Shown here piece by piece: positions 3,001 to 50,863 of a DNA stretch of 64,000 bases. The notes under the pieces are model-generated. The model saw nothing but the letters and a program-made list of their open reading frames with translations. It had not been told where the DNA came from and made no database searches. Origin of the DNA: a bacterium (GTDB lineage: Bacteria > Patescibacteriota > Minisyncoccia > Phycocordibacterales > UBA12445); contig JAUSIP010000016.1 of assembly GCA_030648005.1 (NCBI GenBank), positions 1,110 to 65,109 on the forward strand. The letters are read 5' to 3'. Within the stretch, counting starts at the first letter, position 1. The number at the start of each line of letters is the position of its first letter. Position numbers and translations under genes: made by a program.

Positions 3001-4144
3001 TCTTGCATCCGGCAAAACAGCAGATGTTGAATTGACTTATACTGTGGCAGAGTTAGCAACTTCAAATATAGACACCACAACAGAGGTCGGCAAATTAACA
3101 GTCGTATCTTATAGTTCCGATAAGGGAGATTGGGAAACATTAAGTACGGTCGCAACCTACAAAGATTCGGCTGGAGATGTCGTGGCTTCCCCGAATGCTA
3201 ATCTATCTAACGTATCATCAGTCAGCTTCATTGCCTCAGGTACTCACTTCTCAGCATACGCCCTATCTTCTTCTGAGGGTGTATCACCGCCCGATGCGCC
3301 GACAGGAGTGACTGCTACTCCGGCAACAAACGTAGCTAGGGTTACGTTAACGTGGACTGCCTCTCCTGATGCTGAAGGATATTATGTTTACAGAGACACA
3401 TCTGCTGGTGGCACCTTCCCGTTAATTGGAAATCCTGGAAACACAACAAGCTATACCGATAATGCTGTATCAATCTCAACTACCTACCTCTATAAGGTGT
3501 CGGCATTTAAATCTAGTGGCGCTTCGGAATCATCACCTTCATCTGCTGTGAGCGCCACAACTCTTTCTGGCGGAGGTGGCGGAGGCGGAGGAGGAGCTGC
3601 CGCGTCACCTTCACCTGCTCCAGCAGCATCTACACCAGTAGTTGCCACTCCGGCACCTGTTGCGAAGCCAGCTGTTAAAGAGACCATAGGTCTTGCAATC
3701 CCTGTAAGTACTAGTGGTACAAATAGGATAGTTATAGGACATAAATTCTTGAAGGTGCTTAAGATTGGCAATAAGGGCAATGAGGTCAAGGCCCTTCAGG
3801 ATATTCTTGAGGCACAGGGACATCTTAAGATGCCTAAGGGTGTAGCTAAGGGCACCTTCGGCTCATTAACCAAAGAGGCTATTAAGAAGTTCCAGAAAGC
3901 CAATAATATCGCCAAAGAGGGTCAGCCTGGCTTCGGTGATCTTGGACCTAAGACTAGAGCGAAGTTGAATGAGATGGCTGTGGTAGAAACACCAAAAACG
4001 GAGGCAGAACCGGCCAAAGCACCAGAAGCATCTAAGTCAGCATCTGTTATGACTTCGGAGGCTAAAACAGCATTGATCAGCACTCTCTTACAGCAAATTC
4101 AGGCTCTGCAAGAAGTGCTTAAGGGTCTGAAGGCCGGACAATAG
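2..4144 (+). CDS. Giant cell-surface protein, 5'-partial (frame open to window edge): tandem carboxypeptidase-regulatory-like/Ig-like beta-sandwich repeats, fibronectin type III domain, Gly9 linker, putative peptidoglycan-binding (PG_binding_1-like) domain, Ala/Pro/Lys-rich tail
   Basis: Frame 2 has no stop from base 2; the ORF track only starts at the first GTG (302). Repeats such as ISGTVYKDSATSG...GRYSIKALDGTYQILVSKPQY and ITGQVTDGSS...GNYTLYVSNGTWKVS. FN3-like PDAPTGVTATPATNVARVTLTWTASPDAEGYYVYRD. GGGGGGGGG run. C-terminal LKIGNKGNEVKALQDILEAQGHL...GTFGSLTKEAIKKFQKANNI matches the peptidoglycan-binding domain pattern. Confidence 0.6.
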   Translation, partial: SSSDFSICCVATTSSSNPSVATQNTDINGPGTGTVGIKTITADTLAKTVTLTLDTATRSENSDTHDFLRFTIAGLKNPSIPKGIDSSGYVLDIKSKNASGVLLESFNANPVYIGGGTAGGGSVTTIRGVVSGNGSNLKDVPVHLMSPSTGPQDATTDANGLYQFTNIPVGSQFLSNNFGGGNEYMVFIEPFITGVSDENGATTTNFFGNTMPSPVIATSTSLIGKNFSLTPANTASIAANFTVRLTAAANTFTAAETLDVFAGGPGQFVSRTITPGASALSNSTLTTVPIPKVNGSWGVGISPPMPKGGGFSGPPPSPNWSMPKPIEVKVSGCPSACVTSVSGFATTSNIFTISTADKTISGVLKDGSGNAIASAMVFAFSPSTDAGGGTGNSTQSSTVGAFSIKVVAGTYVVGAYSPGIGESKKVTVVVDSSGNVFVDGNATASTGSSGANPFTLKMVKPDYSITGQVTDGSSAVGNAPVFAYRTDAPGHADAMSDSSTGNYTLYVSNGTWKVSSFIPGFGPMAEQTVTVSGSSQSNINFAPSSSQTFSILSGNIYEDTNRSDTFTAGEGLSGAVIRVSNGTNVNEGVSSTDGAYTVRVPSGTGYKIQDIFSPTYGRIAPIGDSGAAIGTINLTASTTKNIRIPIRGTVSIIIKDSSGNPLTVPKAFIDLFDNTTGLGNHVEIDNGTTTSILMASSTSAYTVKAYIQGIPPANISVASDDAGTTVTSGRITINRATEYIKIVVNTASAGMSTISGTVYKDSATSGNELEGAWIQFVDQTNGVQFGTQSTSSGRYSIKALDGTYQILVSKPQYVATPTTLVVSGATTQNMTMTQSSLTISGTVTSGGVAAASSFVRGEKVGGGQAITQTDTNGTYTLNVTPGTWRVFAAADGYAEAGYASNPLTVSSSQSSINVALSTAASVQSKLATSNTFSDTSAGTFSDTTVNLKVSVDANAFGSAGASSYFTAKETTNYPNTTSVNIVANKAKDISAFSGGSQVTNLASGKTADVELTYTVAELATSNIDTTTEVGKLTVVSYSSDKGDWETLSTVATYKDSAGDVVASPNANLSNVSSVSFIASGTHFSAYALSSSEGVSPPDAPTGVTATPATNVARVTLTWTASPDAEGYYVYRDTSAGGTFPLIGNPGNTTSYTDNAVSISTTYLYKVSAFKSSGASESSPSSAVSATTLSGGGGGGGGGAAASPSPAPAASTPVVATPAPVAKPAVKETIGLAIPVSTSGTNRIVIGHKFLKVLKIGNKGNEVKALQDILEAQGHLKMPKGVAKGTFGSLTKEAIKKFQKANNIAKEGQPGFGDLGPKTRAKLNEMAVVETPKTEAEPAKAPEASKSASVMTSEAKTALISTLLQQIQALQEVLKGLKAGQ

Positions 4145-4164
4145 ATTTCCCTGTTGCAATAGAA

Positions 4165-4200
4165 AAAAAACACTCCGCTTCTCAGCGGAGTGTTTTTGTT
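4165..4200 (+). terminator. Rho-independent terminator of surface-protein gene
   Basis: Hairpin cactccgct-tctc-agcggagtg followed by tttttgtt. Confidence 0.7.
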
Positions 4201-4247
4201 AGACAAAAGTTCAAATTTAGTTTAAATTTAAGTGTGTCGAGTTGAAG

Positions 4248-4331
4248 GCCTGGGTGGCGGAATTGGTATACGCTACAGACTTAAAATCTGTCGCCCGTAA
4301 GGGATTGAGGGTTCGATTCCCTCCCCAGGCA
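4248..4331 (+). tRNA. tRNA-Leu (anticodon TAA), type II with long variable arm
   Basis: Acceptor gcctggg/cccaggc, anticodon stem-loop acaga-cttaaaa-tctgt, T arm gaggg-ttcgatt-ccctc, long variable arm; folded by eye. Confidence 0.8.
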
Positions 4332-4347
4332 CCGCCGTATAAATTAT

Positions 4348-4422
4348 GGCCCGATAGCCAAGTGGTAAGGCAAAGATCTGCAAAATCTTTATGCGGGAGT
4401 TCAATTCTCCCTCGGGCCTCCA
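4348..4422 (+). tRNA. tRNA-Cys (anticodon GCA), CCA encoded
   Basis: Acceptor ggcccga/tcgggcc, anticodon stem-loop aagat-ctgcaaa-atctt, T arm gggag-ttcaatt-ctccc, 3' tcca. Confidence 0.8.
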
Positions 4423-4767: not shown

Positions 4768-6270
4768 TTATTTTTGTACTACGTCGAACACTTCTATTGT
4801 ATCATCTATTGCGATTGTAATCTTACTTTCTATTAGAGCGCCGAATTGGTTACCCTTAACAACCTCATCCGCTTTTTGTTTCTGCTGTTGCAGATCAACG
4901 ATAGTGCCCCGGCCGATCTCGTTCAACTGCCTTAATACCTTACACTTCCGGCCGAGCATTAACGAGCCCTCTAATACTGCACCGCCGACAATCTGTCTAT
5001 CTTTGGTCTTGCTGAATATCTTCAAGATCTTCGCTTTGCCGACAGTCTCTTCAACTTCAATCTTCGGAGTCCTCTCCTTCATCTCTTTGACTATAATTGG
5101 GCTGATATCGTAAATTATGTTGAAGATTCTAGGGGTTAGGTTTAAATTCTCAGCCATATCTTTGGCGGTATTATCGATTTTTACATTGAAGCCGATTATA
5201 AGTGGGCGCAAGCTTCCCGAAGCCGTCTTTATATCGTTCTCGCTTATGTTGCCGACGCCTTTGATGATGAATTTGATCTTTGCCTCGGTTGTCTCAAGCT
5301 TAAGAAGCTCTTTCTCAATAGCTTCCAGAGATCCGGAAACATCAGCTTTTAAGACTACTGGCACCACCACCCGGGCATTCTCAAATCTTGACTCATCCTT
5401 TTTTGATAACTCTTTTTGTTCGGCTTCTTTCGCCAACTTTTCCGCCTCTTTCTTGCTACCTACTGATCTAAACTTCGCTCCGGCTGGTACAACTTCACCA
5501 AAGCCAATAACTTTAATAGGGGAGGGTGCTTGTGCCTCGTCTACCGACTGACCCATAGAATTCTCCATATATCTCACTGGAGTTATGTTTTTGCCGATCA
5601 CCAAGAATGTGCCTTTTTTAAGAACACCATCTCGGAGGATGATCGTTGCCGACCCGCCCTTCTTTGGATCGAGGTTTGATTCGATTACGAAACCCTCAGC
5701 ATCTTTGGTTGTGTCTATCTTTAGTTCCCCCATTTCTGCGATAAGAAGCATTACATCGAGTAGCTCAGACACTCCGGCGCCTGTCTTGGCGGAGATTGGA
5801 GCGAACGGCACATTTCCACCAAAACCTTCGAGATAAACGCCGGCGGCAGCCAGATCAACCTTAACCTTCTCCACGTTTGCATTCGGTTTATCTATCTTAT
5901 TGATTGCCACAATGTAAGGCACTTTGGCTTGCTCGATAGTTTTTAAGGCCTCGAGAGTCTGTACTTTAACACCGTCATCTGCCGCAACAACCAAAATAAC
6001 AATATCGGCCACTTCAGCTCCACGCGAACGCATCTTTGAGAAGGCCTCATGCCCTGGAGTGTCCAAGAAGGTGATATTCTTCTCGGCTCCAGCTTCGGTC
6101 TTGTGTACTACTTCATAAGCGCCAAGATGCTGAGTGATACCTCCGGCTTCTTTGTCTACGGTACTTGATTTTCTAATGTAATCTAAAAGAGTTGATTTAC
6201 CATGATCAATATGCCCCATCACTGCGACAATAGGCGAACGCTCTTGATTGTTTGTCTCTTTTTTTGTCAT
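4768..6270 (-). CDS. infB: Translation initiation factor IF-2 (short form lacking the long N-terminal region)
   Basis: G-domain motifs [28 protein letters not shown]; 500 aa. Confidence 0.92.
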
Positions 6271-13450: not shown

Positions 13451-14674
13451 ATGGAGAGGCTTAAACAAAAATTACCCGATTCGCCCGGAGTTTATTTCTT
13501 TAAGAAAGGAAAGGGTATTTTGTATATCGGCCGGGCTACGTCACTTCAAAGCCGTGTTAGAAGTTACTTTAATAAAGAGACGATAAATTCCCGTGGGGCT
13601 TTTATTGCGGGAATGGTTGCAGAAGCTACTTCGCTAGTTTGCAGACAGACTGATTCTGTTCTAGAGGCGATAATTCTGGAGGCGGAACTCATTAAAAAAT
13701 ACCAACCAAGATTTAATTCTAAAGAGAAAGATAATAAGAGTTTTTATTATATTGTCGTCACGGCTGAAAATTTTCCTAGAGTACTCATGGTTCGGGGTAG
13801 GAATTTAGAGATGAAAGATAATGATTTCAAAATTAAGAAACTTTTTGGCCCTTTCCCATCCGGCACAGAATTGAAGGAGGCACTCCGAGTCATCAGGAAA
13901 CTTTTCCCATTCAGAGATAAATGTTTGCCAAATTCAGGGAGATCTTGTTTTAACCGCCAAATAGATCTATGCCCGGGTGTTTGTATTGGAGAGGTATCTC
14001 GTGTTGAGTATAAAAAGCAGACTAAAAAAATAGAACTATTTTTGTCGGGCAAGAAGAAGACTGTGATCAGCTTACTTAAGAAGGAGATGAATATTTTTGC
14101 GAATAAAAGAGAATTTGAAAGAGCCGAAATTACAAAAAGAAAGATCTTTGCACTCGAACATATACAGGATGTAAGCTTGATAAAGAGAGAGTCGGCAATA
14201 TTACCGGATTTTGGCGAAAAAAATAAAATATTCAGAATAGAAGCATATGATATCGCACATCAGAGCGGGACGAATAATGTCGGGGTGATGGTTGTCTTAG
14301 AGAACAATGAACCCAATAAGGAAGAGTATAGGAAGTTTAAAATAAGAGGGGATTATCCATCTGATGATTTGCGATCATTGCGCGAGGTGTTGGAGAGACG
14401 GCTGAATCATCCCGAGTGGCGCTTTCCTGACTTGATAGTCGTCGACGGAGGCAAACTTCAGGTGGCTGTGGCGGAAGATATAATGAAGCGCGATGGTCTG
14501 CTTATTCCAATTGTTGGTGTAGTCAAAGATGAACATCATAGGCCTAAGAATATTTTGGGAGATGTTGAGATAATTAAAAAATATGAAAGAAAAATACTGC
14601 TGGCCAATAATGAGGCGCATAGCTACGCTATCAATTATTTTAGGAAACTAAGTATTAAGAGTATGAAGGGATAG
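13451..14674 (+). CDS. uvrC: Excinuclease ABC subunit C, short form lacking the C-terminal HhH domain
   Basis: GIY-YIG N-terminus (PGVYFFKKGKGILYIGRATSLQSRVRSYF), Cys-rich and UVR segments, RNase-H-like endonuclease domain (FRIEAYDIAHQSGTNNVGVMVV...DDLRSLREVLERR); 407 aa. Confidence 0.85.
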   Translation: MERLKQKLPDSPGVYFFKKGKGILYIGRATSLQSRVRSYFNKETINSRGAFIAGMVAEATSLVCRQTDSVLEAIILEAELIKKYQPRFNSKEKDNKSFYYIVVTAENFPRVLMVRGRNLEMKDNDFKIKKLFGPFPSGTELKEALRVIRKLFPFRDKCLPNSGRSCFNRQIDLCPGVCIGEVSRVEYKKQTKKIELFLSGKKKTVISLLKKEMNIFANKREFERAEITKRKIFALEHIQDVSLIKRESAILPDFGEKNKIFRIEAYDIAHQSGTNNVGVMVVLENNEPNKEEYRKFKIRGDYPSDDLRSLREVLERRLNHPEWRFPDLIVVDGGKLQVAVAEDIMKRDGLLIPIVGVVKDEHHRPKNILGDVEIIKKYERKILLANNEAHSYAINYFRKLSIKSMKG

Positions 14675-14817
14675 ACTTGAAACTTACAGTTTCAGTACCC
14701 GCGATTGGGTTTTTTAATTCGCTCCGCTCTTAAAAAAGCCTCAATCGGGCTTCAAGTCTCTCACAGAAGACACTTAGGTGTCTTCTTCCGCGTCAAAATT
14801 TCACTTCGTTCAATTTG

Positions 14818-14900
14818 TGCCGCGGGAGAGACTTGAACTCTCACGAGGTTGCCCCCGATAGATTTTGAGTCTATTGCGTCTACCATTCCGCCACCGCGGC
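14818..14900 (-). tRNA. tRNA-Leu (anticodon CAA), type II
   Basis: Minus-strand sense gccgcgg...ataga-ctcaaaa-tctat...gagag-ttcaagt-ctctc-ccgcggc-a. Confidence 0.8.
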
Positions 14901-49736: not shown

Positions 49737-49969
49737 TTTGCTTCTACTCCCGTCTGTTGATTTAGTTGTCGAATAACTCGGCTAATTTCTATCTTCAAGT
49801 ATAGCATACTAAATATCAAACTGTCAATAGCAAATACAAAATACCATTATTTTATAAGGGGGATATTTTAATTTTGATTTCAGCAGATTCTATGTGATCA
49901 CAAGTTACTAAGTCTACTCATCCGCCCAGGGCGGATTGCGTGGACTAAGTACTTGCCGACCCCGACTCA

Positions 49970-50050
49970 CGGTTTTTGTTTTTTAGGAGAGAAAACAAAA
50001 ACATCGTTCCGCCTTCATAAAACTAAAAAAGTGGAGAAGTCCACTTTTTC
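49970..50050 (-). terminator. Two tandem hairpins with T-tracts downstream of the minus-strand tRNA cluster
   Basis: ggtttttgtttt-ttaggagag-aaaacaaaaac and aaaaagtgga-gaag-tccacttttt. Confidence 0.6.
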
Positions 50051-50061
50051 TTAACGTTTGA

Positions 50062-50133
50062 TGACCCTACAGAGAATCGAACTCTGATTTAAGCCTTGAG
50101 AAGGCTCCGTCCTAACCGTTAGACGATAGGGCC
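50062..50133 (-). tRNA. tRNA-Glu (anticodon CTC)
   Basis: Minus-strand sense ggcccta-tc-gtc-taacggttag-gac-g-gagcc-ttctcaa-ggctt-aaat-cagag-ttcgatt-ctctg-tagggtc-a; 3-bp D stem typical of tRNA-Glu. Confidence 0.75.
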
Positions 50134-50385
50134 AAATTGTAAACTAACTGCGACCAAACTCTGATTTCCTCCTTACAGGAGCGGTACACCTTTCGCACCC
50201 TACGGGGATGCTCAAGGTCTTGCAGTTGGGTCCCCAAGCCCAACCTCACCTCTCGAAGGCCGTGTCCTAACCGATAGTCCCGACCCCACAGGGTCGAGGA
50301 TCCTCGATTTTATGGAGATTTCGCTGTAACGAAATCGTAATAAAATCGGGAACGATAGGGCCGTTACTGTGAAACTATTCTAATA
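50134..50385 (-). other. About 250-nt GC-rich, highly structured region with degenerate tRNA-Glu-like segments (pseudo-tRNA, interrupted tRNA, or unknown ncRNA)
   Basis: Minus-strand sense begins ggccctatcg (identical to the tRNA-Glu 5' end), contains ctatcggttaggac (D-arm copy) and aaatcagagtt (variable/T copy) separated by nested hairpins (cgattttat...ataaaatcg; atttcg-ttacag-cgaaat; cgaccc-tgtg-gggtcg). No intact cloverleaf could be drawn. Confidence 0.4.
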
Positions 50386-50446
50386 TAACTTGCCAAGAAT
50401 GTAAAATATGATAGTATGAGAAAGGAGGTTTGTAAAGGAGGTCGTT

Positions 50447-50863
50447 TTGCCCCGCAAGAACAATGAGGAGCTCCGAAGGAAGGATCTCCCTAGTGGTAAA
50501 AAAAAGACCCGTTCACGCGGATGCCGAAGCAGAAAACCCAACAATAAGGTTAACCGCGGGAGATATTGGGAGGAGCGAATGGCTAAGCTCCTGGACGATA
50601 ATAACATCAAGTACACAGCCAATAGATCATTTAAAACGGTTAATAAGAAAGGATATAGAAACCATAGGGAAGTTGATTTCTGCCTCCATGAAGATCTAAG
50701 TGTCTTGCGACGAGAACATCCGATCCGGTACATTGAAGTTAAGAGTGGAAAACTAGATAGAGACCAGCAGGAGGATCTTCGTAATGCTGGAATTTATACC
50801 GACATTATCATCCCCCTAGACATAATCTATTGGGAAATACATGGTCTTTCTTTGCAGAAATAA
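50447..50863 (+). CDS. PD-(D/E)xK nuclease-fold protein resembling Holliday-junction resolvase Hjc / YraN, with basic N-terminal extension
   Basis: TTG start 8 nt after AAGGAGG; ...GRYWEERMAKLL...VDFCLHEDLSVLRREHPIRYIEVKSGK (D...E-V-K signature as in Hjc DLVA...CIEVK). Confidence 0.45.
   Translation: MPRKNNEELRRKDLPSGKKKTRSRGCRSRKPNNKVNRGRYWEERMAKLLDDNNIKYTANRSFKTVNKKGYRNHREVDFCLHEDLSVLRREHPIRYIEVKSGKLDRDQQEDLRNAGIYTDIIIPLDIIYWEIHGLSLQK

Follow-up and report, generated by a model that had tools for sequence, protein, structure and literature searches.

The locus described here lies in a 64,000-nucleotide (nt) stretch of contig JAUSIP010000016.1, hereafter the window, from a member of the Patescibacteria. 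An intact gene for tRNA-Glu(CUC) occupies positions 50062–50133 of its minus strand (ARAGORN; Rfam RF00005, 60.3 bits). Directly upstream of this gene, on the same strand and between it and the sole predicted promoter, is a GC-rich unit of 229 nt (50134–50362) in which pieces of a second tRNA-Glu are combined with hairpin-forming sequence. An earlier inspection of the DNA letters (the sequence-only reading) had drawn attention to an element of roughly 250 nt at 50134–50385; the GC-rich unit stands, with narrower limits, positions 50363–50385 being a short leader plus the −10 box. GC content is 0.50–0.62 over 50100–50349 as against 0.26–0.40 in adjacent intergenic DNA, a difference that reading had also reported, and 0.44 in the whole window.

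The tRNA-Glu pieces are collinear with the tRNA: positions 1–11 and ∼14–34 form a head and positions ∼37–54 a tail. The unit starts with GGCCCTATCGT (50352–50362, minus strand), an exact copy (11/11) of tRNA-Glu positions 1–11; this sequence is present exactly twice, at 50362–50352 and at the 5′ end of the tRNA itself (50133–50123). The second part of the head (50255–50277, minus strand) copies the 3′ half of the D arm and the 5′ strand of the anticodon stem plus UUC, to about position 34, with 19 of 23 nucleotides identical. The 3′ strand of the anticodon stem, the variable region and the 5′ strand of the T stem are copied at 50174–50157 (15 of 18). Anticodon positions 35–36, the 3′ strand of the T stem and the 3′ strand of the acceptor are absent. 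The sequence-only reading had picked out all three copies and had described a tRNA-like series without a closed cloverleaf or a 3′ acceptor, and it was right: ARAGORN and Rfam detect only the intact tRNA-Glu at 50062–50133, and by their criteria no cloverleaf, and no tRNA, is found within the element.

Two insertions interrupt the copy. The first, of 73 nt, lies in the D loop and accommodates both of the hairpins named in the sequence-only reading. Hairpin A (50301–50351, minus strand) is the nested structure CGATTTTAT...ATAAAATCG, that is, CGAUUUUAU...AUAAAAUCG around GAUUUCG/CGAAAUC. Hairpin B (50279–50299, minus strand) is CGACCC-TGTG-GGGTCG, or CUCGACCC-UGUG-GGGUCGGG, with a U.G pair on the minus strand. 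Both are near-perfect. In a homologue introduced below, L084, a different hairpin occupies the position of hairpin A and is likewise bracketed by UCC...GGA, and GGAUCCUC, which flanks hairpin B, is common to the two units; most homologues have no hairpin at the position of hairpin A.

After the head comes the junction GAGAGGUGA (50246–50254, minus strand), which closes a small hairpin, hp0 (GCCU/AGGU, 50260–50248), and carries GAGAG, complementary to UUCUC of the anticodon loop. The junction is invariant or nearly so in nine homologues; the variant in one unit, L126a, is ACGAAAGGUGA. The second insertion holds three more hairpins. The first of these, hpC (50224–50245, minus strand), is a 7-bp hairpin (GGUUGGG/CCCAACU) with a G-rich loop. 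A GCAAG linker then leads into hp1 (50188–50223 with its linker, minus strand), where a base of ACCUU/AAGGU is followed by a tandem G.A internal loop and by GCAUCC/GGGUGC. A GUACCG linker leads in turn into hp2 (50169–50187 with its linker, minus strand), CUCC-UGUAA-GGAG with a GUA-centred loop. The unit closes with GAAAUCAGAGUU, resembling tRNA-Glu positions ∼44–54, and a 23-nt AT-rich spacer that runs up to the 5′ end of the tRNA (together 50134–50168, minus strand). A 10/12 match to the 3′ strands of the T stem and acceptor at 50208–50197 falls inside hp1 and out of order, and is probably due to chance because it is missing from the homologues. We refer to the conserved part as module M: GUGA, hpC, GCAAG, hp1 with its ACCUU/AAGGU base, GUACNG, and hp2 with its GUA loop, ∼110–140 nt in all. 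The window unit contains every part in this order, on the tRNA strand and beside an intact tRNA, embedded in a 3′-truncated extra copy of tRNA-Glu(CUC).

The predicted promoter, TTTACA-17 nt-TAGAAT (50377–50405, minus strand), matches the consensus at 10 of 12 positions and would place the start of transcription at about 50370; a relative, L002, has TTTACA-17-TAGTAT in the same arrangement upstream of its tRNA-Glu. An intrinsic terminator, consisting of an 11-bp stem and then a T run, ends the transcription unit of element and tRNA at 50025–50050 (minus strand). No further signal of either kind lies between the promoter and this terminator, and no terminator/anti-terminator alternative was seen. 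The consensus scan found no promoter-like site between the unit and tRNA-Glu; provided that it is correct, transcription has to pass through the unit for the tRNA to be made.

Searches of known families were negative. In Rfam 15 no family matched the element or its relatives, either at gathering thresholds (the window and six loci) or at E≤10 (the element and locus L102), and the covariance-model match that the sequence-only reading had named as decisive counter-evidence did not appear. The models for tmRNA, T-box, RNase P, 6S, SRP, HEARO, ROOL, GOLLD and small ribozymes gave no match to the element; those for introns of group I and of group II gave none even at E≤10, with the caveat that RF00028 misses certain introns of Patescibacteria. 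The element matched nothing when phage and plasmid collections were searched by BLAST, a module pattern scan of viral contigs returned zero, and a literature search found no description of such elements. Compared by eye, the cores of small ribozymes, including the hammerhead, misfit the order and lengths of the junction strands, and archaeal-type bulge-helix-bulge splicing would not restore the Glu anticodon.

Homologous units were found upstream of tRNA-Glu(CUC) in eight other Patescibacteria contigs, and upstream of tRNA-Ile in one more, by the kind of comparison the sequence-only reading had proposed. A scan with the 5′ 25-mer of tRNA-Glu, one genome per species, yielded 120 loci, almost all from Patescibacteria, and a second GGCCCTATCG was present within 500 nt upstream of the tRNA in 13 of them. 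The parts of the window unit recur in unchanged order in L084 (Parcubacteria GW2011_GWA2_43_11), as seen by BLAST and alignment before any model was built. A metagenome scan with a pattern common to the window and L084 added seven contigs (L124–L130), of which L124 duplicates L126 and L128 duplicates L084. Contigs L125–L130 contain eight units with the part order of the window, all directly upstream of an intact tRNA-Glu(CUC) and in tandem pairs in both L125 and L126; the upstream unit of L126 (L126a) was not selected by the pattern and has GCCUACGAAAGGUGA in place of GCCUUCGAGAGGUGA. An independent full-length copy (L042, 2950–3086; 66 bits), found only by the covariance model R2 described below, precedes an intact tRNA-Ile(GAU). 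There the order is tRNA-Ile positions 1–24, the module, tRNA-Ile positions 27–38, a spacer and the intact tRNA-Ile, and ∼10 nt of the upstream flank are also duplicated. The module is therefore not specific to tRNA-Glu.

In most upstream-type units nothing interrupts the head, which copies tRNA positions 1–34, GC hairpins in the D loop being found only in the window and L084. Nearly all copies keep the exact 5′ strand of the acceptor (a variant head in L125 reads CGCCCUAAGG), and the second part of the head is kept in all Glu-type homologues. The point at which the module enters the tRNA copy varies, from 25/26 in the Ile copy to 34–37 in the Glu copies, and the tRNA-like parts differ among homologues in their extent of decay. 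Anticodon positions 35–36 and everything from the T loop on (∼55–76) are missing in all homologues, and a complete tRNA always follows. The element is rare at tRNA-Glu(CUC) loci: there is one clear case among the 120 genome loci.

The conserved order across these sequences is hp0 (GCCU/AGGU), GA, hpC, GCAAG, hp1, GUACNG and hp2 with its GUA-centred loop. In a MAFFT alignment of eight sequences (A6), 91% of cells were paired as against 36–53% in slid controls, and 13 of the 24 pairs showed two-sided changes, a count reached in none of 500 shuffles. With L042 included (A8, nine sequences) the values were 92% as against 31–51%, and 17 of 24, again with none of 500 shuffles as high; this alignment was fitted to the model and its pair counts therefore lean towards the structure. 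In hpC alone, compensatory changes affect six of the seven pairs. The z-score of the single-sequence fold is only −2.3, which would not by itself prove structure: the real support comes from covariation and not from folding energy.

Two covariance models were built, R1 of the hp1-GUACNG-hp2 half and R2 of the whole core. The window unit, itself a seed of both, scores 49.7 bits with R1 (50164–50220) and 114 bits with R2. R1 matches 21 copies in 15 sources, with 95% of cells paired and compensatory changes in 8 of 10 pairs; across these copies the base of hp1 and the stem of hp2 covary and the hp2 loop is conserved. Of the 21 copies, 17 keep a U.G pair at the foot of hp2, where the window copy has a C, and in the window the U.G pairs of hairpin B and hp1 also form only when the tRNA strand is read. 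Wobble pairs conserved on that strand speak for an RNA that is read in the direction of the tRNA. Among the options listed by the sequence-only reading, that of a distinct structured non-coding RNA (ncRNA) is supported: the part that is not tRNA persists in other genomes, where many of its base pairs have changed in a compensatory manner, and it belongs to no Rfam family.

The hp1-GUACNG-hp2 half also occurs downstream of tRNA-Glu, tRNA-Val and tRNA-Leu and after an ftsZ-like open reading frame (ORF), and in these downstream elements the flanks repeat the 3′ end of the neighbouring gene, in both sense and antisense orientation. The order of a downstream unit is GUGA, acceptor 5′ strand, AAG, a hairpin, CG, T-stem 5′ strand, the reverse complement of the last 5 nt of the T loop, AAR, hp1, GUACNG, hp2, the last 5 nt of the T loop, T-stem 3′ strand and acceptor 3′ strand. 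Such a unit is in effect a minihelix of acceptor and T stem, copied from the neighbouring tRNA, in which the module replaces the T loop. The window has a second family member of this kind at about 14668–14794 (minus strand), just downstream of tRNA-Leu(CAA) (14817–14900, minus strand), with scores of 19.9 bits (R1) and 25.3 bits (R2). It comprises GACGCGG (resembling the acceptor 5′ strand), AAG, a hairpin, GUGAGAG plus ACUUG (the T-stem 5′ strand and antisense T loop), AAG, hp1, GUACUG, hp2 (AAACUGUAAGUUU) and then CAAGUCUAUCCC. It was seen by covariance model only: BLAST within the window found no other copies of the element. In L055 (∼4060–4400, minus strand) an hp1-GUACUG-hp2 module follows the stop codon of the ftsZ-like ORF (...DWGAVPAFLRRSKLK*). 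Its flanks hold an antisense copy of the ORF's 3′ end and a direct repeat of that end, 35 nt long, of which one copy has TGA and the other TAG; tRNA genes are thus not the only neighbours of the element.

Module M is not the only passenger. A direct repeat of the 3′ 14-mer of the tRNA is found 110–260 nt downstream in at least 11 of 100 tRNA-Glu loci, and the same scaffold holds at least two other RNA cores. Protein-coding sequence is carried too. In L125 (2746–4126) a Fic-domain gene lies between two near-identical downstream-type units 1.3 kb apart, and in L021, 0–700 nt downstream of tRNA-Glu, a segment of ∼430 nt with a Zn-ribbon ORF is flanked by 28-nt repeats of pseudo-tRNA 3′ ends. In L077 (∼4816–5098, plus strand) and L029 (∼3638–3939, plus strand) a tRNA-Glu head is followed by an ORF for a GIY-YIG nuclease of 76–78 amino acids and then by an intact tRNA-Glu; this head consists of positions 1–12, a GC hairpin in the D loop and positions 13–25, an architecture like that of the window with a cargo like a homing endonuclease. 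The flanks of tRNA genes in Patescibacteria are hotspots for insertions bracketed by duplicated tRNA segments, and module M is one recurrent RNA cargo.

Two further observations concern these flanks. In L093 and L104, 190–220 nt upstream of tRNA-Glu, a different unit consists of tRNA positions 1–21 followed by an unrelated structured RNA with AAGGCGAUGUC, the antisense of tRNA positions 22–33, and AUAGGGU; it looks like a D-loop-type relative of the phenomenon. Past the tRNA-Glu terminator of the window (∼49885–49990, minus strand) is a GC-rich structured stretch, ...GAGUCGGGGUCGGCAAG, a hairpin and UUAGUAACUUGUGAUCACAUAG, and similar GGGGUCGCG...UGUGAC(C/U)ACAU motifs lie downstream of tRNA-Glu in seven loci (L034, L066, L070, L057, L102, L126 and L033). 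This stretch looks like a second RNA core absent from Rfam.

We consider it somewhat more likely than not that the element is one copy of a new family of structured RNAs, absent from Rfam 15, that hitchhikes on tRNA genes. The unit would be transcribed as a ∼235-nt 5′ leader of pre-tRNA-Glu, and cleavage by RNase P at tRNA position +1 would separate leader from tRNA, leaving the tRNA intact and releasing the structured RNA; the RNase P site of the downstream tRNA-Glu would thereby define the 3′ end of the element. The family would persist by riding on the transcription and processing of tRNA. The partial tRNA copies would be footprints of insertion or duplication at the DNA level, and the folded core would be the part under selection, as a protein- or RNA-binding domain or as something self-propagating. 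The core may work for the cell, either as an RNA acting in trans or as a domain that binds protein, or it may work for itself alone. The family is multi-copy, in places tandem, and patchy among genomes, and it behaves as a repeat: it adjoins highly transcribed tRNA genes on their strand, forms tandem arrays and is always bracketed by duplicated parts of the neighbouring gene. The two near-identical units of L125 suggest spread within a genome.

Events at the DNA level are favoured over copying of mature tRNA because of the duplicated flank in L042, the antisense segments that extend into trailers and the near-identical L125 units. A retro-origin from mature tRNA was considered and rejected: CCA stands after the 3′ tRNA copy in L057, L116 and L067, but most others lack it, antisense segments reach into the genomic trailer, and the upstream flank is duplicated in L042. 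L067, which resembled an interrupted single-copy tRNA, proved to be a scaffold join marked by NN.

The same observations allow a bolder interpretation, to which we give distinctly less credence: module M and its relatives may make up a novel class of mobile elements with tRNA genes as targets, whose RNA fold (a ribozyme or guide) directs insertion or copying. Short segments complementary to the target could then provide specificity (GAGAG versus the anticodon loop; in the downstream type, the antisense segments of T loop and acceptor), insertion or copying in the loops of tRNAs and at the 3′ ends of genes could yield long target duplications, and the tRNA-like scaffolds downstream could be reusable landing pads with protein cargo (the GIY-YIG, Fic and Zn-ribbon ORFs).

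The unit is neither a decaying pseudogene nor an intron, two options that the sequence-only reading had entertained. A tandem tRNA-Glu pseudogene, its insertions being incidental junk or small functionless palindromes, would explain the collinear head and tail, the absent 3′ part and cloverleaf, the uneven decay of the tRNA-like parts among homologues and the lineage-specific pair of D-loop hairpins, and to that extent the idea stands. Known tRNA pseudogenes and tandem partial duplications are likewise collinear copies of an adjacent tRNA without a cloverleaf. What fails is the notion of the insert as decay. Here the interrupting sequence is a conserved, covarying module common to other genomes and tRNAs; the same module sits in a tRNA-Ile copy and, in part, beside tRNA-Val and tRNA-Leu. 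The core is conserved across distant contigs with compensatory changes in 17 of the 24 pairs, and 21 copies of one half of it are known, their neighbours being tRNAs of four types and one ORF; since neutral junk would not covary, we regard the pseudogene as largely refuted and very improbable. A tRNA-Glu gene with introns (divergent group I or other), spliced into a second tRNA-Glu, is if anything slightly less credible. Patescibacteria do have group I introns in tRNA anticodon loops, some of which are missed by RF00028 (Nakagawa et al. 2026, PMC13011429), and the Glu-type module lies at the anticodon loop, so that phylum, location and evasion of standard tools all agree. Those introns, however, have complete exons and a core much larger than module M (PMC13011429), whereas our unit has no 3′ exon: positions 35–36 and the 3′ strands of T stem and acceptor are absent in all nine homologues, each of which is followed by a complete tRNA, the core measures only ∼110–140 nt and has three simple hairpins beside hp0 but no P3–P9 catalytic core, no intron model matches at E≤10, and the insertion point in L042 (25/26) is not a loop used by known introns.

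Two other explanations are each unlikely, and about equally so. The unit may be a cis-acting leader that controls the output of tRNA-Glu, with the head competing for the 3′ acceptor strand of the tRNA, or acting as an RNase P decoy, or with the core sensing a ligand or protein so as to alter read-through or processing. Its place between promoter and tRNA, the exact acceptor 5′ strand in nearly all heads and the complementarity of GGUGA to UCACC in the 3′ sequence of tRNA-Glu all suit this role; half of the core is also met with downstream of tRNAs and behind a protein gene, however, and the rarity of the unit (one clear case in 120 genome loci), its tandem copies and the lack of a terminator/anti-terminator alternative are hard to reconcile with it. 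The unit may instead be the remnant or miniature of an integrative element at tRNA genes, its direct repeats being att sites and its structured part an element-borne RNA or arm region. Direct repeats of a tRNA segment do flank the insert, as an att remnant would require, and across the insertions such repeats span 11–35 nt of the target; the anticodon loop and the T loop are where the tRNA copies break, and integrases reportedly prefer just these sublocations as crossover sites, an observation ascribed to Williams in 2002. Protein cargo lies between such repeats (GIY-YIG in L077 and L029, Zn-ribbon in L021, Fic in L125) and a serine-recombinase fragment adjoins tRNA-Glu in L127. Yet the insert is only 229 nt and not element-sized, and no integrase lies near most copies or the window copy, where five nearby ORFs out of those listed for 44–56 kb were compared with Pfam and none matched a recombinase. 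Covariation and conserved U.G pairs point to selection on RNA and not on protein-binding DNA, antisense copies of the target are not a feature of att sites, and phage, plasmid and viral sequences gave no matches. A MITE or IS-derived repeat, which would be marked by terminal inverted repeats, a short target duplication of fixed length and a cognate transposase, was considered as well: the 11-nt direct repeat of the window unit coincides with the tRNA head and has counterparts of 10 to 34 nt in other copies, the element showed no terminal inverted repeats, and a Y1 transposase lies near one locus only.

Several points weigh against the tRNA-hitchhiking RNA family that we prefer. There are only nine distinct upstream-type sequences, and seven of them were retrieved with a pattern that fixes GGTTAGGAC...CTTCGAGA.GTGA (part of hp0), so that the pattern itself accounts for part of the conservation at the fixed positions, a bias that does not touch L126a and L042. 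Alignment A8, and likewise A7, was fitted to the model. No clean pair of filled and empty orthologous sites was found; the contig of L002 ends at tRNA position 29, which is shared by head and tRNA, and so it cannot show absence of the element. Transcription, processing and stability of the unit RNA are predictions, and the unit may instead have a purely cis-acting role in tRNA maturation. The long target duplications and the antisense copies of the downstream type have no established mechanism. A scan of ten neighbouring ORFs in L125–L130 found no common family, the L127 fragment being the only recombinase; with no consistent protein neighbour, no mobilising machinery is identified.

The element shares features with several known classes of RNA and repeat. 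Like mascRNA (from MALAT1), tRNA-linked snoRNA and miRNA transcripts and engineered tRNA scaffolds, it joins non-tRNA RNA to tRNA-like structure; RNase P or RNase Z would set the ends, as in our proposal, and the downstream-type relatives form a full acceptor/T-stem minihelix. The known cases, however, are eukaryotic, viral or synthetic, whereas here the tRNA-like parts copy a specific neighbour and include antisense segments. The structured bacterial repeats BOX, ERIC, Correia/NEMIS and REP/REPIN and tRNA-derived SINEs are, like the unit, short, non-coding, multi-copy, hairpin-rich and patchy, they are co-transcribed with their neighbours as the unit would be, and SINEs also have a tRNA-derived head. 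Unlike them, the unit shows no terminal inverted repeats or short fixed target duplications, its stems covary and its loops are conserved, its copies are tied to tRNA genes, and no reverse transcriptase or transposase partner was identified. ROOL and GOLLD are also large structured RNAs, often adjacent to tRNAs and without an assigned function; they are 500–800 nt long, phage-associated and present in Rfam, in contrast to an element with no Rfam or viral-contig match.

Divergent from the unit, on the plus strand, is an orphan ORF of 94 amino acids (50579–50863); a longer frame from 50447 encodes 138 amino acids with a very basic N-terminal extension. Only two homologues were found among 5.8 billion proteins, both beside tRNA-Glu and a DedA/VTT gene; there is a weak Pfam match to TPD only and no PDB relative. 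Two identical Shine-Dalgarno-like copies of AAAGGAGGT lie near this ORF at 50421–50442. The S9 look-up, together with the search for this ORF, also led to Logan contigs that break inside the locus: L001 and L003, from the same organism, are short-read assemblies that end at window positions 50090 and 50337. Such breaks fit with repeated tRNA heads confusing de Bruijn assembly, and units of this type are probably under-represented in metagenome-assembled genomes.

Patescibacteria have tiny genomes, yet at 10–20% of the sampled tRNA-Glu loci additional, incomplete tRNA copies are joined to conserved folded RNAs that no database lists. These units would explain the assembly breaks at such tRNA loci and the odd fragments reported by tRNA finders. 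If they give rise to stable RNAs matured by the enzymes of tRNA processing, they would constitute a new and abundant class of ncRNA in a phylum that is still little understood, and nature's equivalent of engineered tRNA scaffolds. Should they be mobile, they may exemplify a hitherto undescribed route of insertion beside essential genes that leaves those genes unbroken.

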